Notes under the pieces: model-generated
Seen by the model: the letters and a program-made list of their open reading frames with translations, nothing else
What the model was told of the DNA's origin: nothing
Databases searched by the model: none
In this document: one piece after another, positions 1 through 11,887 of the stretch
How the letters are laid out: each line of letters opens with the position of its first letter
Numbering within the stretch: the stretch's first letter is position 1
Program-made: the position numbers and the translations under genes
IMG/VR virus record: IMGVR_UViG_2541047953_000003
Coordinates: 1 to 11,887 of that record
From: a virus
Lineage: Duplodnaviria > Heunggongvirae > Uroviricota > Caudoviricetes
Direction: 5' to 3' (one strand)
Length of the DNA: 11,887 nt

Positions 1-336
1 ATGGCAGAATCATTTGCAACAGGTTCCGATCATCAGGTTATAAACGAGCTCAACGGGGAAAGACTGAGAGAACCTAACGATGTTTTTAAACGTTTAGGTC
101 GAGCAATAAGATATAATTTTCAAGTGGACGATGCAAAATTTAGACGCGATAATGTAAAAGAAATAATTTCTAATTTATTCGCTAACAAAGTTGACGTTGA
201 CCATCCTGAAAATAAATACAAAGACTTTAAGGATCTCGAAGATAACGTTGAAAAAAGACTTCAAAATCGCCAGGCGAAATATCAAAATGAAATTAATCAA
301 CTATCTGCGCCAGGTGTTAATTTTGATGATATTTAA
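1..336 (+). CDS. 3' portion of a conserved hypothetical protein, probably truncated at the window edge (111 codons to the stop at 334..336)
   Basis: Open frame runs from position 1 to the stop and is convergent with mlaA, sharing a hairpin terminator. In E. coli K-12 the gene upstream of mlaA is yfdF, so this may be its C-terminus, but I do not recognise the sequence itself. Confidence 0.45.
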   Translation: MAESFATGSDHQVINELNGERLREPNDVFKRLGRAIRYNFQVDDAKFRRDNVKEIISNLFANKVDVDHPENKYKDFKDLEDNVEKRLQNRQAKYQNEINQLSAPGVNFDDI

Positions 337-480
337 AATTATTTTTCCAGTTTTTTGATTTTTCAACGCCTGAATATCGGAAATAGTCAGTGACGAACAT
401 CAGTATTTTTACATCATTACGTCCGGGTCATTGTCGGTTTATCTCCTTTTACTTGTGGTAATTGAGGGATAACAACAAAA

Positions 481-508
481 AAGGTGAGTTTTGCGACTCA
501 CCTTTTTT
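481..508. terminator. Bidirectional intrinsic terminator between the convergent upstream ORF and mlaA
   Basis: 9-bp stem AAGGTGAGT (481..489) / ACTCACCTT (496..504) with loop TTTGCG. It is flanked by an A-run upstream and a T-run downstream, so each strand sees hairpin plus U-tract. Confidence 0.7.
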
Positions 509-517
509 ATTTGTTTC

Positions 518-1273
518 TTATTCAGAATCAATATCTTTTAAATCATCCTGAATCGCTTGTGCGTTCGGATTTTCCTGCGGTTTGAGTTCGCCGCCATTAG
601 CGATGAAATCATGACGCTGGAAGTACGCTTCGCGCACCATAATATAAGGATCGGACGACTGACGCAGCAGACCATCGGAATCCAACAACTGCGCACGAGT
701 TTCTATCCCTTCAAGCGTCCATTTACCCACAGACATCGGCCAGGTCAGCCAGGAAAGAACCGGGTAAAGACCATCCGCCATATCACCACCGTCATCACGC
801 AGCGTGAAGCTACCGTAGAACGGTAACTGGACGTAAGGCCCATAACCCACGCCATAATGACCAAGCGTACTACCGAAGCGGTGAGGTTCAGTCCGTTGCA
901 GTTTCGGGTTCGCCATCCCTGCAACATCAATAAAACCGCCCATCCCCAAAATGGTGTTCAGGAAAAAGCGGGTAAAGTGGACCATCCCCTGATAAGGGTC
1001 GCCCTGCAAGAAGTAGTTAACCATCACCGCAGGTTCTTCAAGGTTGCCAGTAAAGTTGCTCAAACCGTTACGCGCCGGTTGCGGAACATAATCACGCCAG
1101 GCGACAGCGACCGGTCGAACAATATACGGGTCTAATACATTGAAGTTGAAGTTGTACATGGTGCGGTTGAACCCTTCTAACGGGTCAGAACGCCCTTGCT
1201 GATCTGTACCGGAACTCGCACACCCCACCAGAAGCGTAGTTCCCAGAGCAAGCGCCGACAGGCGAAGCTTCAT
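518..1273 (-). CDS. mlaA: MlaA (VacJ) outer-membrane lipoprotein, phospholipid asymmetry maintenance
   Basis: 251-aa ORF with N-terminal signal peptide and lipobox (LLVGC ASS). The full-length sequence matches MlaA/VacJ as I remember it, and the mlaA-yfdC-argW synteny is that of E. coli. Confidence 0.9.
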   Translation of the reverse strand: MKLRLSALALGTTLLVGCASSGTDQQGRSDPLEGFNRTMYNFNFNVLDPYIVRPVAVAWRDYVPQPARNGLSNFTGNLEEPAVMVNYFLQGDPYQGMVHFTRFFLNTILGMGGFIDVAGMANPKLQRTEPHRFGSTLGHYGVGYGPYVQLPFYGSFTLRDDGGDMADGLYPVLSWLTWPMSVGKWTLEGIETRAQLLDSDGLLRQSSDPYIMVREAYFQRHDFIANGGELKPQENPNAQAIQDDLKDIDSE

Positions 1274-1566
1274 AAATGTCTCCCTGTTTTTTTATGGCTT
1301 ATGCAGTTTGCCATCCATGACGGAACGATACCGTATCCGCCTGTTTAGGTGTGGGCGATTGTAACAGCACGTCAACTGATGTCCAGACGCCCTGATTTGC
1401 TGATTTGATCATAGCCTGGTAATCGCCGCCCTGTAGGCTACTTGATTCTATAGAAACAGAAAAAGGCAAACGCAGCCTTTTCTACATTTTCAGAGTAACT
1501 CCCGTCAGTTGCGAGCAAAAAAGCCGCTACGCTTTAGCTATACGTGCTAATTCAAGAGAAGAGACC

Positions 1567-2499
1567 ATGGACAACGACAAAATTGATCAACACAGCGACG
1601 AAATTGAAGTTGAGAGCGAAGAAAAAGAGCGCGGCAAAAAAATAGAAATAGATGAAGACCGACTCCCCTCCCGGGCGATGGCAATTCATGAGCATATCCG
1701 CCAGGATGGTGAAAAAGAGCTGGAACGCGACGCAATGGCGCTACTGTGGTCAGCCATTGCGGCGGGTCTGTCGATGGGCGCTTCGTTACTGGCAAAAGGG
1801 ATATTTCATGTCGAACTGGAAGGTGTGCCGGGCAGCTTCTTGCTGGAGAATCTCGGTTATACCTTTGGTTTTATTATCGTCATTATGGCCCGCCAGCAAT
1901 TATTTACCGAAAATACCGTGACTGCGGTACTACCCGTCATGCAAAAACCGACAATGAGCAACGTCGGCTTACTTATACGGTTATGGGGCGTCGTGCTGCT
2001 GGGTAATATTCTCGGGACAGGTATTGCGGCGTGGGCATTTGAATATATGCCTATCTTCAATGAAGAAACTCGCGATGCATTTGTCAAAATCGGCATGGAT
2101 GTGATGAAGAACACCCCCAGCGAGATGTTTGCCAACGCGATCATTTCCGGCTGGCTGATCGCCACTATGGTTTGGATGTTTCCTGCAGCGGGTGCGGCAA
2201 AGATTGTGGTGATTATATTGATGACCTGGCTTATTGCCCTGGGTGACACCACCCATATCGTGGTCGGTTCTGTTGAAATCCTCTATCTGGTGTTTAACGG
2301 TACGCTGCACTGGAGCGATTTCATCTGGCCCTTCGCACTACCTACTTTAGCGGGGAACATCTGCGGCGGCACCTTTATCTTCGCGTTAATGAGTCATGCA
2401 CAGATTCGTAACGACATGAGCAATAAGCGTAAAGCAGAAGCACGCCAAAAAGCAGAACGTGCGGAAAACATTAAGAAAAATTATAAAAACCCGGCATAA
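1567..2499 (+). CDS. yfdC: Formate/nitrite transporter (FNT) family inner-membrane protein YfdC
   Basis: 310-aa ORF with multiple hydrophobic helices after an acidic N-terminus, preceded by a purine-rich RBS (GAGAAGAGA). Size and position between mlaA and argW match yfdC. Confidence 0.85.
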   Translation: MDNDKIDQHSDEIEVESEEKERGKKIEIDEDRLPSRAMAIHEHIRQDGEKELERDAMALLWSAIAAGLSMGASLLAKGIFHVELEGVPGSFLLENLGYTFGFIIVIMARQQLFTENTVTAVLPVMQKPTMSNVGLLIRLWGVVLLGNILGTGIAAWAFEYMPIFNEETRDAFVKIGMDVMKNTPSEMFANAIISGWLIATMVWMFPAAGAAKIVVIILMTWLIALGDTTHIVVGSVEILYLVFNGTLHWSDFIWPFALPTLAGNICGGTFIFALMSHAQIRNDMSNKRKAEARQKAERAENIKKNYKNPA

Positions 2500-2557
2500 A
2501 TGGCGAGGGTTTAAGCAATCGAGCGGCAGCGTACTTACCCCGCACTCCATTAGCGGG

Positions 2558-2563
2558 TATACT
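2558..2563 (+). promoter_or_regulatory. Candidate -10 element (TATACT) of the argW tRNA promoter
   Basis: TATACT sits 11 nt upstream of the mature tRNA 5' end and is followed by a GC-rich discriminator-like stretch (GCCGC). The -35 is weak, so the call is tentative. Confidence 0.3.
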
Positions 2564-2574
2564 CATGCCGCATT

Positions 2575-2649
2575 GTCCTCTTAGTTAAATGGATATAACG
2601 AGCCCCTCCTAAGGGCTAATTGCAGGTTCGATTCCTGCAGGGGACACCA
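2575..2649 (+). tRNA. argW: tRNA-Arg, anticodon CCU
   Basis: 75-nt sequence folding as a cloverleaf: acceptor stem GTCCTCT/AGGGGAC, anticodon loop CTCCTAA (anticodon CCT), T-loop GGTTCGATTCC, encoded 3' CCA. Followed directly by an integrase gene, the classic argW island arrangement. Confidence 0.93.
2620..2635 (+). repeat. 16-bp segment of argW (TTGCAGGTTCGATTCC) that recurs exactly at 11652..11667; candidate att core, attL copy
   Basis: Exact 16/16 direct repeat found by eye. Its position inside the tRNA T-arm next to a P4-type integrase is typical of a tRNA-targeting att core. Confidence 0.6.
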
Positions 2650-2739
2650 TTTATCAGTTCGCTCCCATCCGTACCAGTCCGCAAAATCCCCTGAACATCA
2701 AGCCTTCCGTATATTCACAGTTCGTAATGGTTCGCGTCA

Positions 2740-2810
2740 GATCGTTGACAGCCACACTCCATGACGGGTAAAAAGTGGATAAAATAATTTTACCCACCGG
2801 ATTTTTACCC
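2740..2810 (+). promoter_or_regulatory. Candidate intS promoter and recombinase/RDF binding region (attL arm)
   Basis: TTGACA at 2745..2750; TAAAAT at 2780..2785; inverted repeat GGGTAAAA (2765..2772) / TTTTACCC (2789..2796), with TTTTACCC repeated again at 2803..2810 abutting the ATG. GTTCG motifs recur at 2626, 2657, 2719 and 2730. Confidence 0.35.
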
Positions 2811-3968
2811 ATGCTCACCGTTAAGCAGATTGAAGCAGCAAAGCCGAAAGAAAAACCATACCGCCTACTCGATGGTAATGGTCTGTACCTTTATGTCCCT
2901 GTATCCGGAAAAAAGGTCTGGCAGCTTCGCTACAAGATTGACGGTAAGGAGAAAATCCTGACCGTAGGAAAATATCCGCTAATGACTTTGCAGGAGGCAA
3001 GGGATAAGGCATGGACTGCGAGGAAAGACATCTCGGTTGGCATCGATCCGGTAAAGGCGAAAAAGGCTTCGTCTAACAACAATTCATTTAGTGCGATTTA
3101 CAAGGAATGGTACGAGCACAAGAAGCAAGTCTGGTCAGTAGGCTATGCAACTGAACTTGCCAAAATGTTTGATGACGACATTTTACCCATCATCGGCGGT
3201 CTTGAGATTCAGGATATTGAGCCGATGCAACTGCTGGAAGTAATCCGCAGATTTGAAGATCGCGGTGCAATGGAGCGAGCCAACAAAGCCCGCAGAAGAT
3301 GCGGCGAGGTTTTCCGTTACGCTATTGTCACCGGAAGGGCTAAATATAACCCAGCACCTGACCTTGCTGACGCCATGAAGGGATACCGCAAGAAGAACTT
3401 CCCGTTTCTTCCTGCAGACCAGATCCCGGCATTCAATAAAGCACTAGCAACATTTTCAGGAAGTATCGTATCGCTCATTGCCACCAAGGTTTTACGCTAT
3501 ACAGCCCTAAGAACGAAAGAGCTTCGTTCCATGCAATGGAAGAACGTCGATTTTGAAAACAGGATTATCACCATCGACGCCAATGTGATGAAGGGACGCA
3601 AAATTCATGTGGTTCCTATGTCAGACCAGGTGGTTGAACTTCTCACTACGCTAAGCTCAATCACTAAACCAGTGTCAGAGTTTGTTTTTGCCGGACGCAA
3701 CGATAAGAAGAAGCCAATCTGCGAGAACGCGGTGCTACTTGTGATCAAACAAATCGGCTATGAGGGTCTGGAAAGCGGTCACGGATTCAGGCATGAATTC
3801 AGTACGATTATGAACGAGCACGAATGGCCTGCTGACGCTATTGAGGTGCAACTGGCACATGCCAACGGCGGATCTGTGCGTGGGATTTACAACCATGCTC
3901 AGTATCTCGATAAGCGCAGAGAAATGATGCTGTGGTGGGCGGACTGGCTGGACGAAAAGACACAGTAA
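2811..3968 (+). CDS. intS: Tyrosine recombinase, P4-type prophage integrase (IntS-like, 385 aa)
   Basis: ORF immediately downstream of argW. The C-terminal region has the tyrosine recombinase signature (HGFRHEF ... VQLAHANGG ... RGIYNHAQY). Start chosen at MLTVKQ (2811); an in-frame ATG at 2775 would add 12 residues. Confidence 0.85.
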   Translation: MLTVKQIEAAKPKEKPYRLLDGNGLYLYVPVSGKKVWQLRYKIDGKEKILTVGKYPLMTLQEARDKAWTARKDISVGIDPVKAKKASSNNNSFSAIYKEWYEHKKQVWSVGYATELAKMFDDDILPIIGGLEIQDIEPMQLLEVIRRFEDRGAMERANKARRRCGEVFRYAIVTGRAKYNPAPDLADAMKGYRKKNFPFLPADQIPAFNKALATFSGSIVSLIATKVLRYTALRTKELRSMQWKNVDFENRIITIDANVMKGRKIHVVPMSDQVVELLTTLSSITKPVSEFVFAGRNDKKKPICENAVLLVIKQIGYEGLESGHGFRHEFSTIMNEHEWPADAIEVQLAHANGGSVRGIYNHAQYLDKRREMMLWWADWLDEKTQ

Positions 3969-3976
3969 TCAAAAGC

Positions 3977-4000
3977 GGCAGGCCACATAAAAAGCCTGCC
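3977..4000. terminator. Hairpin between convergent intS and the UmuD'-like gene
   Basis: Stem GGCAGGC (3977..3983) / GCCTGCC (3994..4000) with a 10-nt A-rich loop. The U-tract is weak on both strands. Confidence 0.4.
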
Positions 4001-4318
4001 TTATACCGCTACGCTGTCACTTCTCACATCGATGATGGTGTGTGTCACCACGCCGGCGACAGTGATATCATCCAGGGCCTCGCCTTCAATCGCTTCGCCG
4101 TCTTCGGTTATCAGCGACCGCCCTCTCAACGTGGCAAGTTCCGTCCCGCCGCCGTGCTGGATCAGAACCTGACTACCCTGCCTTGGTTTCAGGGAGATAT
4201 CCAACACAACGTAACCGCCAGACCGCTCGAAAACTAGCGTGTTTGGGCCTACATTGCAGATCGCGTTAACAGACAGACGCTGCTCAACGTAGTCAGACGC
4301 CGGAGACGGGAACGCCAT
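4001..4318 (-). CDS. UmuD'-like protein (S24 LexA/UmuD fold), genetically pre-truncated and lacking the GDSM serine motif
   Basis: N-terminus MAFPSPASDYVEQR matches the UmuD segment GFPSPAADYVEQR that immediately follows the RecA-mediated cleavage site. The C-terminal half aligns loosely with the UmuD beta-core, but no GDSM-type serine motif is present (RSGGY instead). Start codon overlaps the stop of the upstream small gene (TGATG). An in-frame ATG at 4351 is the alternative start. Confidence 0.7.
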   Translation of the reverse strand: MAFPSPASDYVEQRLSVNAICNVGPNTLVFERSGGYVVLDISLKPRQGSQVLIQHGGGTELATLRGRSLITEDGEAIEGEALDDITVAGVVTHTIIDVRSDSVAV

Positions 4319-4557
4319 CAGATGACCCTCCCCATGTTGGCCATCATCCACAGCCTGTTTTCGCTATGCTCTGCCGTTTTGTCGACAAAGTACGTCTGCT
4401 CTCTTGATATCCAGTTGTTAGCCTCCTCTTCTGAAAAATGGATACCCCTCCGCTGTAGTTCGGAGATGAAAGAATCAGTGTAAAGGTATTGATAACCTTT
4501 AGGATTTATAGAAATGGAGGCTCTGAAAGCCTCCGCGATGGCGTTACGTCTGATCAT
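4318..4557 (-). CDS. Small hypothetical protein (79 aa from ATG; 83 aa if the TTG at 4569 is used), first gene of the SOS-box operon
   Basis: ORF directly downstream of the LexA box and translationally coupled to the UmuD'-like gene. I recognise no family. The arrangement recalls the small impC gene preceding impA in plasmid impCAB operons; this is an analogy by position only. Confidence 0.5.
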   Translation of the reverse strand: MIRRNAIAEAFRASISINPKGYQYLYTDSFISELQRRGIHFSEEEANNWISREQTYFVDKTAEHSENRLWMMANMGRVI

Positions 4558-4575
4558 GTCTCTTACCAAACAAAA

Positions 4576-4591
4576 CTGTATTTATATACAG
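4576..4591 (-). promoter_or_regulatory. LexA (SOS) box CTGTATTTATATACAG overlapping a candidate promoter
   Basis: Matches the E. coli consensus CTGT-N8-ACAG with an AT-rich centre. It lies 19 bp upstream of the small-gene ATG. On the transcribed strand a -35 TTGACT (complement of 4612..4617) sits about 17-18 bp upstream of a -10 that overlaps the box. Confidence 0.7.
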
Positions 4592-4622
4592 TATTGTTTG
4601 CGTTAATCAACAGTCAATCATT

Positions 4623-6722
4623 TTATTGAATAAAAGTGTAAGGAGAAGCGATGGTATATTGTGCATTAGCCCCTATGGGAGTATCGAAAATCCACACCTC
4701 ACTCAAACCATCTTTTGTAATTGACGCGTTAGGTCCCCCATGGCTGCATCCATAAAGATATAACTTTGCTTTACCAGTTAAGTCGGATCCTTGCCCAGCA
4801 GTAAAGCAGGCGCCACCGATAAAGTCTGCCCTTGAACTATCATGCGAGTAACACCCAAAGTTAGCTGTAACCGTGCCATCATGAACATCGTGAACTACAC
4901 GGCCAAACGTTCCGTAGTATTCACCGTTCAAACGTATCCCTACAGTTCCGTCATGAGCGGTAGAGCCGTTATTATTTGGTAAATTATCAAAACCACTCCA
5001 ACGGCCAGTACAACCAATTTCGATAAACCACGGCTTTATCCCAAGACCATTCTGATCGGCATGATAGTTAAATGCGTCCTGCATCCCGTATTGAGCAGTG
5101 CAATTCTGCATAATACAGTTTACACCTAAAGAGTTAAAGGCATTCCTTGTCACAGATAAATCAAATATACAATTTTTTGCATATAAGTATCCTTTTTTAC
5201 CCGCCGTTTGAACCTCAGCCTGAAACCCCCTAAAGCTGTCCTTAAAGTGAATATTTTCAATATAAACTTTGCTATTATCCTGAATTCTTCCATTAGTCAA
5301 TTGAAGAACAAGCCGTGAATTAGAATCAGGAGCTCGCCCGTCAAAAAGATGAATATACAGCGTATTCCCTGTTTTATAGGATGAGCCAGGTGTTGAAACG
5401 CAGTCGGCAAGGCTGGCTACGGGAGTTAGAACCTGAGCATGTCCATAACTATCAAGATTGGCATAGTCAACAACGTTTAGAACAAGATTACCTGTGTACT
5501 GGTATACGCCAGCGCTTCCCTGTGCCGCCCACGTTGCAGCCGGTTCAACAGTGCTCAGAATTGGTGTTCCATCGTATCCGATGAAATCGAGCTCGCGGTC
5601 AACTACGCTAACATTCCATGTAAAATCACGGGTATATTCCATCCCGCCTTTTATCATGATTGTCCTTGCTGCCGGGGTTTTCTCAATGGCATATTTTATA
5701 CGCTGGAATGGTTTAGCCTGCGTGCCGTCTCCAGTCGTATCACTACCGTTAGTGCAGTCCACATAATATGTTGTCCCGCTGGATGCCTTCTTCACAGCCA
5801 CATCATAATCAGTCCAATATCTAAGCGTGCCATCAGAACGAAGTGCGCAGTAAATTGGAATCTGCTCTTCTATTCTTCTCAGCTCACCTGGAAACCATGG
5901 TATTGATGATGGGCATCCGGCAATTCCAAAAGCACTTTTATTTGCATTGCCAATTAATTCTATAAGAGTCCCTGATTTAATATGAGCAATAAGTAGCGAG
6001 CCGTCAAATGGATATCTGTCACGCGCTTCATATGTTCCGTCTGATTTAACAACAATACATATTGTGCTTGATGTTGTTGTGACATTCTGATTTTGACCAA
6101 TAACACTAACGCCATTAAAAGAATAAAGACCGCCAGAAAAGCTTATAGTTGATGATCCTGCAACTGGTTTCCATTGAGGAGATATAATCACGCCTCCTAA
6201 CGATCTGTATAATCTATCAAGAGCTGTATAAACGGTGCTGTCCCTATAGCCAACCAAGGTGGCTCCATTTGACTCTCCAAGCGCTGAGAAATCTACGCTT
6301 ATTGAGCTTATTGCATCGTATACATTGGTGTCTTTAAATCCTACTAATTTCGCGCCATCTGGCTGTGAAAGATCATATCTTAGCTGATCTGGTGAATATC
6401 TTAAGACATTGGAGAAGTAAAATTGCTGTGCTCCATATGCATCATACACAGCCATGCTATGGCTTTGAACTGTCACGAATTTGGCAATCTGTCCGTTATA
6501 TACAGGATAACCAGCGGCGTTAATGATGATTGGCTGCGAAACAGGAACGTGAGAACCATCCTCATTCTCCACATAAACCTGAATCTGGTTTTCAGGATTT
6601 ACCGGGTCAGTGTCAATTTTACCGATATAAATTTTACCATTGGCAACCGCTTTAAAAGAACGCGCCATAGTGAAGAGTTGCGAAGGCATGCTTACTACAA
6701 CATTGGCTGTAATGTCTGTCAT
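4623..6722 (-). CDS. Phage tailspike protein (P22 gp9-type head-binding domain plus divergent receptor-binding region)
   Basis: 699-aa ORF. The first ~110 residues ([11 protein letters not shown]...[23 protein letters not shown]...) match the conserved N-terminal domain of P22-like tailspikes as remembered. The rest differs from P22 gp9 and contains a beta-helix-type start motif ([15 protein letters not shown]...TIMIKGG). RBS GGAG upstream. Confidence 0.85.
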
Positions 6723-6779
6723 TTAATTTGCTCCAGATAGAAGGAAACGCCGCAGCGTGGCTACGGCAATGCGTCATTG

Positions 6780-6794
6780 AGACCACAGTGGTCT
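6780..6794. promoter_or_regulatory. Candidate Mnt operator: perfect 7-1-7 palindrome AGACCACAGTGGTCT
   Basis: Perfect palindrome between divergent mnt and tailspike, immediately upstream of a candidate mnt promoter (-35 TTGTGG 6797..6802, -10 TATGAT 6820..6825). Resembles the P22 mnt operator half-site as I recall it. A second small palindrome CAATGCGTCATTG lies at 6766..6778. Confidence 0.5.
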
Positions 6795-6857
6795 TATTGT
6801 GGATATAACCAGTAGATCATATGATGCCGATCCACTTACAAAAGTGAGGCATCAAGA

Positions 6858-7109
6858 ATGGGAAGAGATGACCCGCAATTTAATCTGCGGCTACCTTACG
6901 AATTAAAGGAAAAACTAAAACAGCGAGCCAAATCCAATGGCCGCTCTCTTAATTCAGAATTAGTTCAGATAGTGACTGATGCTGTATCAAAGCCATCCAA
7001 AATTTCAGGCTATCGAGACGATGCGGAACGCATCGCTGATGAGCAGTCTGAACTTGTTAAGAAGATGGTGTTTGATACGCTGAAGGATTTGTACAAAAAA
7101 CCCACCTGA
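6858..7109 (+). CDS. mnt: Mnt-type repressor (Arc/MetJ ribbon-helix-helix family)
   Basis: 83-aa ORF with strong similarity throughout to P22 Mnt as remembered (RDDP.FN.R.P...EKLK.RA..NGRS.NSEL.QIV.DA.SKPS...GYR.DAER.ADEQSELVKKMVFDTLKDLYKK). RBS GTGAGG 8 nt upstream. Confidence 0.85.
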   Translation: MGRDDPQFNLRLPYELKEKLKQRAKSNGRSLNSELVQIVTDAVSKPSKISGYRDDAERIADEQSELVKKMVFDTLKDLYKKPT

Positions 7110-7122
7110 TGGTGGGTTCCAT
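7101..7122. terminator. Intrinsic terminator between convergent mnt and the lipoprotein gene
   Basis: Stem CCCACC (7101..7106) / GGTGGG (7111..7116) with loop TGAT containing the mnt stop codon. On the - strand the hairpin is followed by TTTTTTG, making it strong for the lipoprotein gene; the + strand U-tract is weaker. Confidence 0.7.
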
Positions 7123-7125
7123 TTA

Positions 7126-7545
7126 TTAGTCTTGCTTTGTGGACGGTATAAGGGATGCATTTGCCTCTTTAGGCTTCAAGGTATACATCCCACCATTAAA
7201 TGGATCTACAGCAAGCCAACCAATTAACCCACCAAACACAAGGTTTCCACCAATATACCAACCATTAGCATTGGCTTTTATTGGCATGGTAACTGGTTCG
7301 TACCCATCCTTCTCCATAGTGATCTGGTAGCTCTTTTTGCCAAAATAACTACCATCTGACTTGGCAAGAGTTACTCCTTGCGGGGTCTTACCTTGCGCAA
7401 CAATCACGCCTGATTCGTCTTTTACCTTAAAGCTCGCACCGGAAGGATTGCTGTTCACTTGCACAAGCTGTGTTTCGTCACCAACAATAGTTGCGCACCC
7501 AGATAACATGATAACGCCAGCAACGACGCCGATAATCCTCTTCAT
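7126..7545 (-). CDS. Putative prophage lipoprotein (139 aa) with a PEGA-like beta region and a glycine-rich hydrophobic C-terminus
   Basis: Signal peptide with lipobox (VIMLSGC). The middle region has a PEGA-like pattern (VQVNSNPSGASFKV...GKTPQGVTL...GYEPV), and the C-terminus has a Gly-zipper-like hydrophobic segment (YIGGNLVFGGLIGWLAV). Has its own terminator. The domain call is from pattern only. Confidence 0.6.
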   Translation of the reverse strand: MKRIIGVVAGVIMLSGCATIVGDETQLVQVNSNPSGASFKVKDESGVIVAQGKTPQGVTLAKSDGSYFGKKSYQITMEKDGYEPVTMPIKANANGWYIGGNLVFGGLIGWLAVDPFNGGMYTLKPKEANASLIPSTKQD

Positions 7546-7616
7546 ATTACTTTCCGTTTTGTTAGAATCAGAAAGATCTTAATAATAAAAAGTATTTTCG
7601 TGAAGATATTGTCGAT

Positions 7617-7631
7617 TGAGTTAATAACTCA
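7617..7631. promoter_or_regulatory. Perfect 7-1-7 palindrome TGAGTTAATAACTCA in the divergent lipoprotein intergenic region
   Basis: Perfect palindrome about 50 bp upstream of the + strand lipoprotein start, inside an AT-rich divergent promoter region (7546..7679). Operator-like; the binding protein is unknown. Confidence 0.35.
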
Positions 7632-7679
7632 TTTACACCCAACAGTGCCATGATGGCAAAGATAAGGAGAGTTAATCAT

Positions 7680-8165
7680 ATGAAAAAATCACTGTTAATT
7701 ATCCCGCTTCTGCTGGCAGGGTGTGCAAAGATTAGCGACTATCAGGCAAGTTGCGAACAACGCTATCCAAAGCTTAGCGATATGGCTAATTGCCTTGATG
7801 CTAGCGTGAAGAGCGACTCACGCATGGCATCAGCACCAACACCTAAGTTATATGTCCTTGCTGCGAAGATGCTCGGGCAAGGTGTCGATGATGGCAAGAT
7901 AAGTGACGCGCAGGCAAGACTTGAGCTTCAGAATCTTTATGTTCAATTACAAAGCCAAGAACAAGCCCAACAAATAGCGCAAAGCCAAGCATTCCAGCAG
8001 GCTTTATTGAATTATCAGGCTGTAAACACTATGCAAGCGATCGAGCAAAAAGCGAGACAGCCTGTTATAACTCAACCATATCCAACACGAGTTGACACTT
8101 ACACAAACTGCAATTCAGGGTTTGGAAATACAGTCACATGCAACAGTAGCAGTAACATCAGATAA
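7680..8165 (+). CDS. Putative prophage lipoprotein (161 aa) with a Gln-rich, probably coiled-coil region
   Basis: Start taken at MKKSLLIIPLLLAGC (lipobox LAGC) with RBS AAGGAGA 9 nt upstream. The in-frame ATG at 7650 is less likely. The mature part contains a Q-rich heptad-like stretch (LELQNLYVQLQSQEQAQQIAQSQAFQQALLNYQ). I recognise no family. Confidence 0.6.
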   Translation: MKKSLLIIPLLLAGCAKISDYQASCEQRYPKLSDMANCLDASVKSDSRMASAPTPKLYVLAAKMLGQGVDDGKISDAQARLELQNLYVQLQSQEQAQQIAQSQAFQQALLNYQAVNTMQAIEQKARQPVITQPYPTRVDTYTNCNSGFGNTVTCNSSSNIR

Positions 8166-8255
8166 CAATCAGCAAAGGTATCGCCTATGCAGAGGGATAC
8201 GATAAACCTCGCGTTCTACATATTTGGTTTTTGCACGTTCATGGTGTTTGAAAAG

Positions 8256-10649
8256 CTATTCTGACAACGCATCAGACTTAGCCCCCTGCATCATAGCGTT
8301 AATTGCCTTTTGTGCCTGCTGCATGGCTTTCTCAAACGCTGTTGAACCGCGTGGGGTGTTTGCCATTCGGAGCATTGCATTTCTGAATGGCTCGCTCTCA
8401 TAGGCGCGAGTAAGAAGTCCGTAGCTTACTGCTGCGCCAGTTGTCGCCGGGTTCATTGCCGTCCCATACCCAATTATGAACGGGATAGTTTGCTGCCCTG
8501 TGGGTGTTGTTACTGCCGCTTTTGCAGCCTGCTGCGTGGATTGCAGGTAGTTTTTTAATCCTTTCAGATAAGCAGCGTCCTGCCCCTTAAATGTGATGCC
8601 AGTCTGTTTTTGCAGGATGTTAAGCTGCCGAAGGAACTGGTCAGGGGATCCGCCAGATTTCTCCATCGCCTTTCCAATGATGCCATTGCGCATTTGCGCC
8701 CTGCCAACACGACCAACTGAGTTATACAGCGTCTTAATTTCCGATTTGTTCTTGCTGAATAGCATGTTGTTGACAACTTCCGGTGTCAGGTCGCCTTTCA
8801 TGAGAACATTCTTCAGCCTGGTATTCTTTAGTTTCGCCGCTTCGTCAGCGTAGACGGCATTGGCCTGCTGATATTTACGGAGAGTATCGTTGCCAAGATT
8901 CTGACCAATGGCACCATTGATATCGTCTGTCATCGCCTTGTAAACGCGCTGAATGGCAGCATCGGAACGGTTTGGCAACACTGGTCGTTCCCCCTTCACG
9001 TCCATTCTGAACTGGCTGCGCAGATCGCTTAATTGCTTCAAATCCAGATTTACCGGACCATCAGGACCAGCATTGCGAACAAGCTCATCACGATAGGACT
9101 GAAGTTTTGAAATAGTCTCGTTATCGGCGACCTTACCAAGCTTCTGCAGATTAGATATTTCTGTATCAATCTGCTGAATTGCTCGCGCAGGATGAATGTT
9201 TACTCCAGCCATAGCATTCTGAACCTGCTCCAGTCGATTACCGGCGGCACGACGAATTCCTGATGTTTTCGCTTTAAGGCTGTCAATAACAACCGCTGGA
9301 TCATACTCACCGAATTTATCGGCAAATCTCTGCACCAACTGGCTTCTCGCTTCCTGTTGCGTTGCTCTCATTCCGCTTGTGCCAGCCAGGGGGATATTTT
9401 CTGCTGTAGTCTGCGCCATTTTCCCGACGCGGGAAGTAGGCTGTAACAGGTCTGTGGTGTGCAGAGGAACTCCTTCACGCTCTGCAAACCTGATAGCCTG
9501 TTGAGCTTCTGGTGCTATCGAACCACGAACACCACGATAAGCAGCACCTAATCCACGTCCGGCAGCGTTAATAGCACCGCCAGCCAGCACACCAACGCCT
9601 AAATCGGTGGCGAGTGCTTCCGCATCATCTTTCGCACTGTTTGCAGCAAGTGATCCAACTGCGTTTTCTGCTAGAAGACGAGTTGCACCCTGAGCAATTC
9701 GACCAGCAAGTGTTGGTGCCTGTGTTGCCGCTCTCTCAACGCCAGCAGGAGTGAGGTAAGGCAATGCTTCAGCAAATACCCTTCCCTCTGTCGTTTGTGG
9801 AGTCAGCGCGCCTTGCTGAAGGCCAAAGTCCTGCTCTAATCCCTGCGTTGTTACTCGTGGTGCTGGTTGATATGTACCATCGCCAATGCCGAGTTTACCT
9901 CCAGCCCAAGCCGCCGCGCTTGTTACAGCATCAGTGAGTTCAGCAGGTATGTTCGCTACGTTGATTCCTGCCTGTAGTAAGCCGCGCCCGGTTTCAGCAA
10001 GTCCATTACCAAGGTCAGACATTATTCCGCCTTGCTGCTGAACAGGTTTCGGTGCGACAGAACTTACGGGTTGAGGTGGCTGCTGACTGGCTGCCTGCTG
10101 CTCAATCTGAGCAAATGGATTATTTGGGTCTGACTGCACGCCTGATGCCGATACTTGTTCGGATGACTGTGCTTCCAGTTGTGCAAACGGGTTGTTAGGG
10201 TCTTGCTGAGGATGTACCTTTGCAGAGGTGGCGCGCTGTTCGACTGTTGAGTCTGTCACCGGGTCACCCGCCCATTGAGCAAAGCGATCATCAACGTAAC
10301 CGCGGCCTTCAGGTCCTGGCGTATATTCACCACGCTTTGCCTTCATAACGTTGCCGGGACCGTCGTGATAAGCCTGAAGAGCGTCACGCCAGTTACCAAA
10401 CTGCTGGTACATCTTTGCCAGATAGCGCGCGCCAGCGTCAGCCTGATATTCGGGGTTTTGCATTTGCTCATCGGTATAACCCATATCACGCCATGTCCCA
10501 GGCATGACCTGAGTCAATCCTACAGCCCCGGCGGAGCTTACTGCGGCAGGGTTGTAAGAAGACTCCTTGGCACCCAGTGCAGTCATCAACCCTTCTGGCA
10601 CACCGTAACGTGCGCCAGCCTGCTCTAACAAATCACGGTAATTAGCCAT
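8256..10649 (-). CDS. Phage ejection (internal virion) protein with an N-terminal lytic transglycosylase (SLT) domain
   Basis: 797-aa ORF. The N-terminus carries family-1 lytic transglycosylase motifs (ALGAKESSYNP with catalytic Glu; AVGLTQVMPGTW; AGARYL). It is followed by a tandem peptide repeat (DPNNPFAQLE / DPNNPFAQIE) and a long Ala/Gly/Gln-rich body. Its position upstream of the immI-like region and tailspike corresponds to the last ejection gene of P22-like phages. Confidence 0.75.
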   Translation of the reverse strand: MANYRDLLEQAGARYGVPEGLMTALGAKESSYNPAAVSSAGAVGLTQVMPGTWRDMGYTDEQMQNPEYQADAGARYLAKMYQQFGNWRDALQAYHDGPGNVMKAKRGEYTPGPEGRGYVDDRFAQWAGDPVTDSTVEQRATSAKVHPQQDPNNPFAQLEAQSSEQVSASGVQSDPNNPFAQIEQQAASQQPPQPVSSVAPKPVQQQGGIMSDLGNGLAETGRGLLQAGINVANIPAELTDAVTSAAAWAGGKLGIGDGTYQPAPRVTTQGLEQDFGLQQGALTPQTTEGRVFAEALPYLTPAGVERAATQAPTLAGRIAQGATRLLAENAVGSLAANSAKDDAEALATDLGVGVLAGGAINAAGRGLGAAYRGVRGSIAPEAQQAIRFAEREGVPLHTTDLLQPTSRVGKMAQTTAENIPLAGTSGMRATQQEARSQLVQRFADKFGEYDPAVVIDSLKAKTSGIRRAAGNRLEQVQNAMAGVNIHPARAIQQIDTEISNLQKLGKVADNETISKLQSYRDELVRNAGPDGPVNLDLKQLSDLRSQFRMDVKGERPVLPNRSDAAIQRVYKAMTDDINGAIGQNLGNDTLRKYQQANAVYADEAAKLKNTRLKNVLMKGDLTPEVVNNMLFSKNKSEIKTLYNSVGRVGRAQMRNGIIGKAMEKSGGSPDQFLRQLNILQKQTGITFKGQDAAYLKGLKNYLQSTQQAAKAAVTTPTGQQTIPFIIGYGTAMNPATTGAAVSYGLLTRAYESEPFRNAMLRMANTPRGSTAFEKAMQQAQKAINAMMQGAKSDALSE

Positions 10650-10811
10650 TTACTGCCCCAAAGATGGAAGATATCCGTAGCGATTAATGAAGTCGATTGA
10701 CAGCTCGGGGTGCTGCTTCAGGTAATGGTCATGTATGAAGACGGTGAGATGTGGTCTGCAATGTGGAATGGCAATCGCTGGGATGATGGCACCGAATATC
10801 CGGATCCGCAC
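10650..10811 (-). pseudogene. Possible 3' remnant of the upstream ejection-protein gene (no start codon); marks the deletion junction
   Basis: The - strand frame ending at TAA (complement of 10650..10652), directly abutting the ATG of the 797-aa gene (TAAATG), is open for only 53 codons and contains no Met. It overlaps a + strand small ORF (10725..10868), so one of the two is not real. Confidence 0.3.
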
Positions 10812-11686: not shown

Positions 11687-11887
11687 ATGCAACACGAACT
11701 ACAGCCTGATTCACTGGTTGATTTGAAATTCATCATGGCCGATACTGGCTTCGGTAAAACCTTCATCTACGACCGGATTAAGTCCGGCGACCTGCCAAAA
11801 GCCAAAGTTATCCACGGGCGAGCAAGATGGTTATATCGTGACCATTGTGAATTCAAAAATAAGCTCTTAAGCCGCGCCAATGGGTAA
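11687..11887 (+). CDS. torI: Excisionase / recombination directionality factor (Xis/AlpA winged-helix family), TorI-like
   Basis: 66-aa ORF with the AlpA/Xis-type pattern (FIMADTGFGKTFIYDRIKSGDLPKAKVIHGRARWLYRD); RBS GGAG 9 nt upstream. Size and position at the far end of an argW prophage from intS match KplE1 TorI as I recall it. Confidence 0.65.
   Translation: MQHELQPDSLVDLKFIMADTGFGKTFIYDRIKSGDLPKAKVIHGRARWLYRDHCEFKNKLLSRANG

Follow-up and report, generated by a model that had tools for sequence, protein, structure and literature searches.

The gene on the minus strand at 4623..6722 of the window (the whole 11,887-nt stretch of DNA analyzed here) codes for a complete tailspike, modular in build, of a temperate P22-like phage (Lederbergvirus type). 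Tailspikes of this modular kind are known already, and the present one adds another member that carries an uncharacterised receptor module. The receptor part has no characterised relative above 53% identity, and the swapping of modules shown by sequence comparison is ordinary phage mosaicism. The gene lies in an E. coli argW prophage from which the central ~30 kb were deleted recently; it is carried along as this prophage decays and has not been domesticated by the host. The finding leaves our understanding of tailspikes and of prophage decay unchanged.

Organization of the tailspike and its virion anchor

The 699-aa ORF starts with an ATG, has a GGAG ribosome-binding site 9 nt 5' of it, and runs uninterrupted to a stop codon at 4623-4625, in keeping with the intact frame reported in the first-pass annotation and seen here on the minus strand. 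The same amino-acid sequence is found in E. coli STEC346 (WP_021575271.1), whose gene differs at 3 nucleotides, all synonymous. The head-binding (virion anchor) domain occupies aa 1-113 (6384..6722, minus strand) and matches the complete Pfam Head_binding model (PF09008; E = 3.8e-65, residues 1-113 against model positions 1-113 of 113). In PDB sequence searches, residues 1-120 aligned to Sf6 gp14 (7sg7; E = 8.5e-64) and residues 2-118 to P22 gp9 (E = 5e-48), the entries matching this domain being 7sg7, 8tvr, 2xc1, and 1lkt. The P22-like start claimed earlier for the first ~110 residues is thus confirmed, with the refinement that Sf6 gp14 (~93% identity over aa 1-118) is nearer than P22 gp9 (~70% over the same residues). 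Gene position is also P22-like, at the late operon's end, behind the ejection genes and the immI region: the tailspike gene follows an SLT/gp16-like gene and mnt in the window, and in intact copies it comes after coat, gp4, gp10, needle, gp7, gp20, and gp16. Residues 1-113 would attach the trimer to a tail hub of the P22/Sf6 type. Beyond approximately residue 128, no significant PDB match was obtained in sequence searches (phmmer and profile searches).

The AlphaFold2 model, made for a monomer, is confident for aa 175-699 and of low confidence in the head-binding and neck parts. The head-binding domain is followed by a neck (aa 116-175; 6198..6377, minus strand), predicted with low confidence to be helical and consisting of two tandem copies of a ~30-aa motif. 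Next come a beta-sandwich domain (aa 176-262; 5937..6197, minus strand; block-mean pLDDT 86-94 for residues 181-260), which weakly resembles phage RBP/TssK "shoulder" domains, and a linker or small subdomain (aa 263-316; 5775..5936, minus strand; block-mean pLDDT 70-93 for residues 261-310), which is poorly modelled if folded alone. The remainder adopts a right-handed parallel beta-helix in the model (aa 317-699; 4626..5774, minus strand) and is a putative depolymerase. The ~200 residues noted earlier between anchor and helix are therefore real and structured, the separate folded domain proposed ahead of the helix corresponds to the beta-sandwich, and the motif chosen as the start of the helix is its modelled start.

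This plan of anchor, neck, and right-handed beta-helix is common to the Lederbergvirus endorhamnosidases Sf6 gp14 and P22 gp9, but similarity to them is undetectable past ~aa 120 and the candidate catalytic residues are different. Unlike these two proteins, the tailspike has an extra duplicated neck motif and a beta-sandwich ahead of the helix, and its modelled helix reaches the C-terminus without a separate C-terminal domain. No sequence similarity to the catalytic domains of P22 gp9, Sf6 gp14, or HK620 was detected by phmmer, profile, or PDB searches, which bears out the earlier view that the receptor part is foreign to these phages. Foldseek matches to 2xc1 and 7ukj (TM 0.15-0.2) were due to the N-terminal domain and the generic fold.

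A mobile receptor module and its beta-helix

Sequence comparisons show that aa ~148-699, that is, neck repeat 2, the beta-sandwich, and the beta-helix, form one horizontally mobile module. No fewer than five further kinds of anchor carry it (Uetakevirus-type, T7-fibre-type, Ackermannviridae-type, Przondovirus RBP2, and jumbo phages), and the Pfam anchors of its carriers differ accordingly (PF03906, PF18668, and PF09008). By blastp, aa 148-699 were 88-92% identical to K. pneumoniae prophage proteins of 719 and 727 aa, the former with a T7 tail-fibre N-terminus (PF03906), the latter with a Uetakevirus-type anchor (match in CP8-3_Sichuan; Table S1 in Pas et al. 2023). A 727-aa homologue also occurs in E. 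coli. Identity to the module was 61-68% for proteins with an Ackermannviridae TSP N-terminus (PF18668), 52-53% over aa 150-698 for Przondovirus RBP2-type proteins including Henu1 gp43 at 53% (blastp), and 49% for Asteriusvirus jumbo phages, while a P22-type tailspike of Serratia fonticola was 72% identical over the full length. Protein homology of the module begins at aa 148, and DNA homology to the 727-aa Uetakevirus-type gene begins at nt 469 (aa 157), within neck repeat 2. The "two-part" region therefore did not arise by insertion, and the extra inserted domain of the first-pass annotation is not supported, as the beta-sandwich is co-inherited with neck repeat 2 and the beta-helix in many unrelated phages. 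Near-identity to a characterised tailspike was rejected: matches in isolated phages reached at most 53% identity (tblastn, 50,697 phage records), and the PDB contains no sequence relative of aa 120-699.

Two of the closest known systems have links to Klebsiella phages. Henu1 gp43, from a Klebsiella phage (Przondovirus RBP2, KP32gp38-type second depolymerase), is homologous across the beta-sandwich and the whole beta-helix but has, instead of a head-binding domain, a short N-terminal peptide docking on RBP1; given the 47% divergence, its specificity probably differs. The second is phiHS3, a P22-like temperate phage of E. coli HS, whose tailspike has been exchanged with Klebsiella Przondovirus and Ackermannviridae phages and which requires a Klebsiella-like K47 group 1 capsule (bioRxiv 10.64898/2026.05.19.726188). 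The hosts are in both cases O8/O9 E. coli with a Klebsiella-derived group 1 capsule, but the receptor modules differ, as the module described here has no nucleotide match in E. coli HS. It provides a second independent example, beside phiHS3, of the passage of receptor modules between coliphages of the P22 type and phages of Klebsiella.

Residues of the helix conserved across the family are D419, D549, Y553, E568, H590, R597, and D612. In a set of 150 sequences (the query and 149 very diverse representatives, from phages of Gram-negative and Gram-positive hosts), D419, D549, E568, H590, R597, and D612 were each kept in 142-149 sequences. The polar or charged positions D549, E568, H590, R597, and D612 are spaced by 19-22 residues, or one rung, and D549, E568, H590, and D612 on successive rungs may form the active site together with R597 and D419. 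The active sites of GH28 and PL1 enzymes likewise have acidic residues, His, and Arg on successive rungs. Binding and cleavage of a surface polysaccharide is the most likely role of the beta-helix, although we infer both the activity and the catalytic residues.

The best structural matches of the helix are enzymes, including hydrolases and lyases with similar scores: BT_1002 (5mqp), Pel9A (1ru4, PL9), alginate lyase 6kfn, and GH28 polygalacturonases resemble it at 8-12% sequence identity. Assignment to a CAZy family or mechanism by fold search was rejected because hydrolases, lyases, and epimerases score alike. The tailspike helix shares a DUF1565-type N-terminal cap motif with right-handed beta-helix CAZymes but, unlike them, lacks any Pfam, NCBIfam, or PDB sequence match. 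Indeed, Head_binding is the only Pfam match of the tailspike at E ≤ 1, diverse family members match nothing in Pfam or NCBIfam except a sub-threshold DUF1565 cap, and no significant profile match was found to curated CAZy-like families (GH28, PL1/3/6/9, DUF1565/Pel9A-like). This large beta-helix family (~1,800 clusters at 50% identity) lacks both a Pfam/NCBIfam model and a solved structure, although its putative active site is clearly conserved. The failure to match any curated enzyme family would also suit a non-catalytic adhesin, in which the beta-helix of the C-terminal module binds protein or glycan without cleavage. We consider this improbable, because the row of residues retained in nearly all sequences resembles an active site and not a variable binding surface, and because the closest folds are those of enzymes; moreover, most studied beta-helix tailspikes are depolymerases.

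Capsule and O-antigen as candidate substrates

The module was detected by nucleotide match in only 3 of 5426 complete E. coli genomes, and STEC346 carries it twice, on two different prophages. All three complete genomes are O8, and in all three a group 1 cps locus (wzi-wza-wzb-wzc-wbaP) replaces wca. Their O8 clusters are 99.6-99.8% identical, with identical Wzm, Wzt, and WbdD accessions, whereas their cps loci are of two different kinds, with ~84% identity in the wzi-wza region and differences in glycosyltransferase sets and sugar-nucleotide genes. The host cps gene content (WbaP, two GTs, gmd-fcl-gmm, ugd, UDP-GlcA epimerase, and acyltransferase) would presumably fit a Gal/GalA/Fuc repeat, such as that of E. 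coli K42 or Klebsiella K63. The three host genomes may be non-independent lineages.

We lean, with some caution, toward a capsule depolymerase whose substrate would be the Klebsiella-type group 1 K polysaccharide of O8 E. coli, cleavage of which would let the phage tunnel through the capsule. Taken at face value, however, the sharing of O8 and the differing cps loci point to O8 over the capsule. The same tailspike would then have the O8 polymannose O-antigen as receptor and substrate and be an endo-mannosidase of the Omega-8 kind; this is the chief alternative, possible but somewhat doubtful. It would account for three of three hosts being O8 when only 277-308 of the 5426 genomes are, as well as for the 88-92% identical modules of K. 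pneumoniae prophages, since the O5 antigen of Klebsiella and the O8 antigen of E. coli are structurally the same; the O-antigen is also the classical target of P22-like tailspikes. On the other hand, group 1 capsule tightly co-occurs with O8/O9, so that enrichment in O8 is expected under the capsule model too, and the cps switch in NRZ94505 could post-date lysogeny because recombination is concentrated in this region. In isolated phages, the proteins related to the module are of the Przondovirus RBP2 type or come from jumbo phages, and such proteins are usually capsule depolymerases; an Arg that hardly ever varies, beside the acidic cluster, would fit acidic sugars better than a neutral mannan; and the O-antigen is masked by capsule in capsulated strains. 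Finally, membership of the RBP subtype predicted to recognize O8 (G7C_RBP1, MK-13_RBP1, and fGh-Ecl02_RBP1; Pas et al. 2023) was rejected, as the module did not match this subtype in tblastn searches against phages.

Colanic acid was also rejected as the receptor, because the only PHROG match annotated with colanic acid lies on the anchor (aa 1-136) and because wca is missing between yegH and galF in the host strains. As for the Omega-8 enzyme, it resembles the present protein in being of the podovirus tailspike type with E. coli O8 hosts but is known by biochemistry only, reportedly from work on this coliphage by Reske, Wallenfels and Jann in 1973 and by Prehm and Jann in 1976. To our knowledge, its gene has never been identified; a search of the accessible literature on Omega-8 or an O8 endomannosidase found nothing useful. 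Among P22-like phages, CUS-3 (argW) is K1-specific. If the predicted activity is confirmed, the tailspike would provide a ready-made depolymerase for a surface glycan common to O8 E. coli with Klebsiella-like capsules and K. pneumoniae, and could serve typing or anti-capsule applications.

The tailspike gene in a defective argW prophage

The left prophage end is formed by tRNA-Arg(CCU) argW (2575-2649) and an IntS-type integrase gene (together 2575..3968, plus strand), the right end by a TorI-type excisionase gene cut by the window end (11687..11887, plus strand) and homologous to annotated torI in SCZE5 and GPEC1292. With these flanks and no head, lysis, or replication genes, the element has the makeup of a defective argW (KplE1/CPS-53 site) prophage. 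Positions 1-10726 are collinear with an intact argW prophage, L018, at 99.2% identity with 0 gaps (blastn), and the match stops 77 nt before the stop of its 443-aa Inj_translocase gene. The window retains these last 77 nt of the gp20-like ejection gene (10650..10727), which end at the deletion junction 10726/10727; the defective state recognized in the first-pass annotation can thus be traced to this junction. The deletion removed the head, lysis, replication, and immunity genes, and the last late gene retained encodes a 797-aa ejection protein with an N-terminal SLT domain and a P22 gp16-like region (8256..10649, minus strand). No tail hub, needle, portal, terminase, capsid, or pac region was found between 2650 and 11887. 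Since remnant and intact prophage are 99.2% identical without a single gap, the deletion is recent.

An earlier suggestion was that the intact tailspike may have been retained to serve the host or as part of a tailocin-like or satellite-like system; examples would be its supply in trans to helper P22-like phages or the trimming of the host's own polysaccharide. Several features would agree with such retention: the ORF is intact, with only the synonymous differences from the STEC346 copy; many E. coli strains harbor argW remnants that have kept int, the tailspike, mnt, and the SLT ejection gene, and the end points of their deletions vary; int, the TorI-type xis, and the att-proximal ends are kept; and the head-binding domain could in principle assemble onto a co-resident P22-like phage. 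We nevertheless regard retention as very improbable. An intact ORF needs no selection when the deletion is recent, and a host, tailocin, or satellite role is unsupported given the near-identical intact argW prophage and the presence of the identical 699-aa protein, which was met in at least 68 index blocks, in many intact P22-like prophages at no fewer than four integration (att) sites. Other tailspikes occur in sister argW remnants, and one of these is truncated by IS1. The tail hub, needle, portal, and packaging genes are gone, and podoviruses give no tailocin scaffold. Furthermore, a consensus scan found no sigma-70-like promoter in the 135-nt spacer upstream of the tailspike, and the late promoter and antiterminator are deleted, so that the gene is probably silent here.

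We also think it unlikely that the module is the long-sought gene family of the polymannose-specific O8/O5 endo-mannosidase of Omega-8-type phages, or that argW remnants are tailspike reservoirs for incoming P22-like phages. Were the former true, the module would cross genera, from E. coli O8 to Klebsiella O5 strains, on six or more kinds of anchor, and would found a beta-helix enzyme family that is not yet curated; were the latter true, argW remnants would donate tailspikes in trans or by recombination.

The Mnt-like repressor, transcribed divergently (83 aa; 6858..7109, plus strand; Pfam Arc E = 2.8e-22, Repressor_Mnt E = 2.2e-18), had been called an "orphan". Its origin by decay is not supported, since in the intact prophages, too, mnt and the tailspike are arranged in this way and arc/ant are absent. 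A near-perfect palindrome separates mnt from the tailspike (6775..6799; CATTGAGACCAC-A-GTGGTCTTATTG), which we take, from the P22 immI layout, to be a candidate Mnt operator. A conserved leader (6723..6768, minus strand), comprising a GC-rich hairpin (6748-6768) and then the GGAG ribosome-binding site, is the only upstream stretch in common with the STEC346 copy. Downstream, two small ORFs of ~79-83 and ~105-116 aa ("UmuD-like", PHROG; 4001..4569, minus strand) form a mobile cassette together with the tailspike. The STEC346 copy, located at another att site, is 99.4% identical. The two ORFs adjoin the tailspike in 10 of 10 loci, the first ORF being uncalled in two of them (L015 and L020).

Head-binding anchor and predicted anatomy of the tailspike

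The tailspike ORF (4623..6722, minus strand) runs uninterrupted for 699 codons from an ATG, with a GGAG sequence 9 nt 5' of this start and a GC-rich hairpin before it. This bears out the coordinates and the intact ORF of the first-pass annotation, and its proposal of a P22-type N-terminus of about 110 residues was equally sound: the Pfam domain PF09008 (Head_binding) spans residues 1–113 end to end (E = 3.8e-65), and a PDB sequence search aligned Sf6 gp14 to residues 1–120 (E = 8.5e-64, ~93% identical) and P22 gp9 to residues 2–118 (E ~5e-48), with no credible match past residue ~128. Anchor and gene position place the protein among the P22-type tailspikes; the catalytic families of P22, Sf6, and HK620 do not include it.

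AlphaFold2, given 27 homologues, produced a model that was confident over residues ~175–699; the N-terminal third was poorly modelled only because few aligned homologues carry that domain. The head-binding domain (residues 1–113) would be followed by a predicted helical neck (116–175) in which a ~30-residue motif occurs twice in tandem, a predicted beta-sandwich (176–262), a predicted linker (263–316), and a predicted right-handed beta-helix (317–699). The first rung of the modelled helix corresponds to a cap motif, YYVD...GSD..GDGT..KPF...IMIKGG, which had been quoted previously as a beta-helix start and does occur at residues 316–360 (window 5643-5777). In a PDB profile search, the pattern YYVD..GSD..GDGT..KPF..I..A also matched the tail fibres of Agrobacterium phage 7-7-1 and Milano and, oddly, human cytoplasmic asparaginyl-tRNA synthetase within its N-terminal domain (4zya, E = 7.6e-5).

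A mobile receptor module and its beta-helix family

Comparison of homologues shows that residues ~148–699, from the second neck repeat to the C-terminus, are inherited as one block. This module was found on a Uetakevirus-type anchor in 727-aa K. pneumoniae prophage proteins (92% identical to it), on a T7 tail-fibre N-terminal domain (PF03906) in 719-aa K. pneumoniae prophage proteins (87–89%), on an Ackermannviridae TSP N-terminal domain (PF18668) in metagenomic proteins (61–68%), and on the short RBP2 N-terminus of gp43 of the Klebsiella Przondovirus Henu1 (53%); it also occurs in E. coli Asteriusvirus jumbo phages (49%) and in Serratia and Klebsiella jumbo phages (~30%). The extra domain that the first-pass annotation saw as inserted is therefore part of a single module travelling on differing anchors. 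In Serratia fonticola, a protein with 72% identity along its entire length shares the head-binding anchor and likewise has the duplicated neck, so the anchor–module fusion is not recent.

Even at blastn sensitivity, just three of the 5426 complete E. coli genomes proved to carry the module. Two of them, 19AR0656 and NRZ94505, encode a 727-aa version; STEC346 has the module on two prophages, in a P22-type 699-aa protein by ybhB and in a Uetakevirus-type 727-aa protein by yfgI (NZ_CP091044.1 1400033-1402216), the two copies showing 97% nucleotide identity. The first ~370 nt of the E. coli 727-aa gene match the RBP of the CP8-3_Sichuan prophage, listed as Uetakevirus (Pas et al. 2023), which by sequence makes its anchor one of Uetakevirus type. 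At the DNA level, the 699-aa and 727-aa genes are homologous from nt 469 onwards, a point within neck repeat 2, and this suggests that the conserved neck motif is the exchange point. Such anchor/RBD shuffling is already well documented (Pas et al. 2023; bioRxiv 10.64898/2026.05.19.726188). Within the module, sequence divergence is faster in the beta-sandwich than in the helix (71–76% versus 91–92% in the Klebsiella 719-aa proteins), and what the sandwich adapts to may be the anchor or virion rather than the receptor; in one further homologue, P0013, the corresponding values are 37% and 81%.

When all 1.84 billion cluster representatives were scanned, 1,846 relatives reached E ≤ 1e-3, of which 174 reached E ≤ 1e-30; most match the helix core alone and about 10 also carry the beta-sandwich. 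We found no model of the helix in Pfam or NCBIfam and no sequence relative among solved structures. The module falls within a beta-helix family that is uncurated, and its nearest studied relative is a Przondovirus RBP2 at 53% identity; the near-identity to a characterised tailspike that would have refuted the first-pass proposal was not found. Among 150 sequences (the query and 149 diverse representatives), D419, D549, Y553, E568, H590, R597, and D612 are conserved in 141–149. The 19–22 residue spacing of D549, E568, H590, and D612 places them on successive rungs, and we infer that the conserved polar residues form a putative active-site groove. Acidic residues clustered with a histidine and an invariant arginine recall GH28 hydrolases and metal-dependent pectate lyases alike, so the chemistry may be that of a hydrolase or a lyase, but an acidic rather than neutral substrate seems more likely. 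Useful leads are this uncharacterised putative enzyme family, whose candidate active site is clear, and a receptor module that crosses the E. coli/Klebsiella genus boundary.

Capsule and O8 antigen as candidate receptors

All three module-bearing genomes carry an O8 ABC-transporter O-antigen cluster (base rate ~5%), and in all three a Klebsiella-like group 1 capsule locus (wzi-wza-wzb-wzc-wbaP...) replaces the colanic-acid genes. In their galF-his regions, IS elements flank the capsule loci and wca is absent. The capsule locus is of a fucose/uronic-acid type in STEC346 and 19AR0656 and of a rhamnose type with five glycosyltransferases in NRZ94505, whereas the O8 clusters are 99.6–99.8% identical. 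At face value, this would favour a putative mannanase acting on O8, which is structurally the same as Klebsiella O5. However, recombination-driven capsule switching is common in the galF-his region, and two cps types beside almost identical O8 clusters indicate just this; moreover, the three strains may have common ancestry, and O8/O9 is itself tightly linked with group 1 capsule. On balance, we regard the mannanase as the main but rather doubtful alternative and somewhat favour a putative capsule depolymerase; that the module only binds its receptor appears improbable. A direct precedent, described in a 2026 preprint, is phiHS3, a P22-like phage of E. coli HS with a tailspike exchanged between it and Przondovirus and Ackermannviridae phages of Klebsiella; it depends on a K47 capsule of Klebsiella-like type and can even form plaques on K. 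pneumoniae K47 (bioRxiv 10.64898/2026.05.19.726188). The module is unrelated to the RBP subtype (G7C_RBP1, MK-13_RBP1) that Pas et al. (2023) predict to target O8.

Prophage decay and the genes around the tailspike

The window reads mlaA, yfdC, tRNA-Arg(CCU), intS, two small ORFs, the tailspike, a divergent Mnt-like repressor, two lipoprotein genes, a 797-aa SLT/gp16-like ejection gene, a few early-left ORFs, and a TorI-type excisionase. Positions 1-10726 are collinear, at 99.2% and with no gaps, with L018, an intact argW prophage with an identical tailspike. The match ends 77 nt short of the gp20-like gene end. Everything between that point and the early-left end has been deleted, and the final 77 nt of this ejection gene are joined to early-left sequence (10650-10727). 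The prophage is therefore defective, as had been proposed, but only recently so. At the same locus in other strains, matches end at 10037, 9974, and 9932; these differing junctions imply that decay, although independent in each case, has repeatedly spared int, the tailspike, and the SLT ejection gene. Other argW remnants have other tailspikes (one cut by IS1) and other deletion end points.

It had also been suggested that the tailspike is retained for a host function or for tailocin- or satellite-like use. The exact 699-aa protein occurs in at least 68 index blocks of public assemblies, and among ten listed occurrences most lie in intact P22-like prophages, which occupy four or more sites (ybhB/bio, argW, dacD, lambda-int type). 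Given the recent deletion and these intact-prophage copies, no host function is required; we found no tailocin or satellite genes in the window and no promoter-like site upstream of the tailspike, and retention for such a role is most improbable.

The Mnt-like repressor (6858-7109, divergent from the tailspike) has Arc and Repressor_Mnt domains, and a near-perfect 12+12 palindrome (6775-6799) separates the two genes. The same mnt–tailspike layout lacking arc/ant is found in four intact prophages (L016, L018, L019, L021), so the "orphan" repressor is no product of decay. Mnt may here control something other than an antirepressor, possibly the tailspike leader.

The STEC346 P22-type gene differs from that of the window by three synonymous substitutions; its downstream two-ORF cassette is 99.4% identical, and upstream only the last ~45 nt are in common. 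These ORFs (4001-4569, minus strand), of ~79 aa (PHROG 3893) and ~105 aa (PHROG "UmuD-like", no Pfam hit), occupy the usual position of O-antigen conversion genes in P22-like phages and travel with the tailspike, at 99.4% identity, across prophages with differing integrases. The two predicted lipoprotein genes (7126-7545, minus strand; 7650-8165, plus strand), one with a weak PEGA-domain match, lie at the sieA position between the ejection gene and mnt and are candidate superinfection-exclusion or moron genes. The ejection protein (8256-10649, minus strand) fuses an N-terminal SLT lytic transglycosylase domain (aa 7–110) to a P22 gp16-like region; gp16 versions of 612–722 aa without SLT occur in other prophages with the same tailspike.
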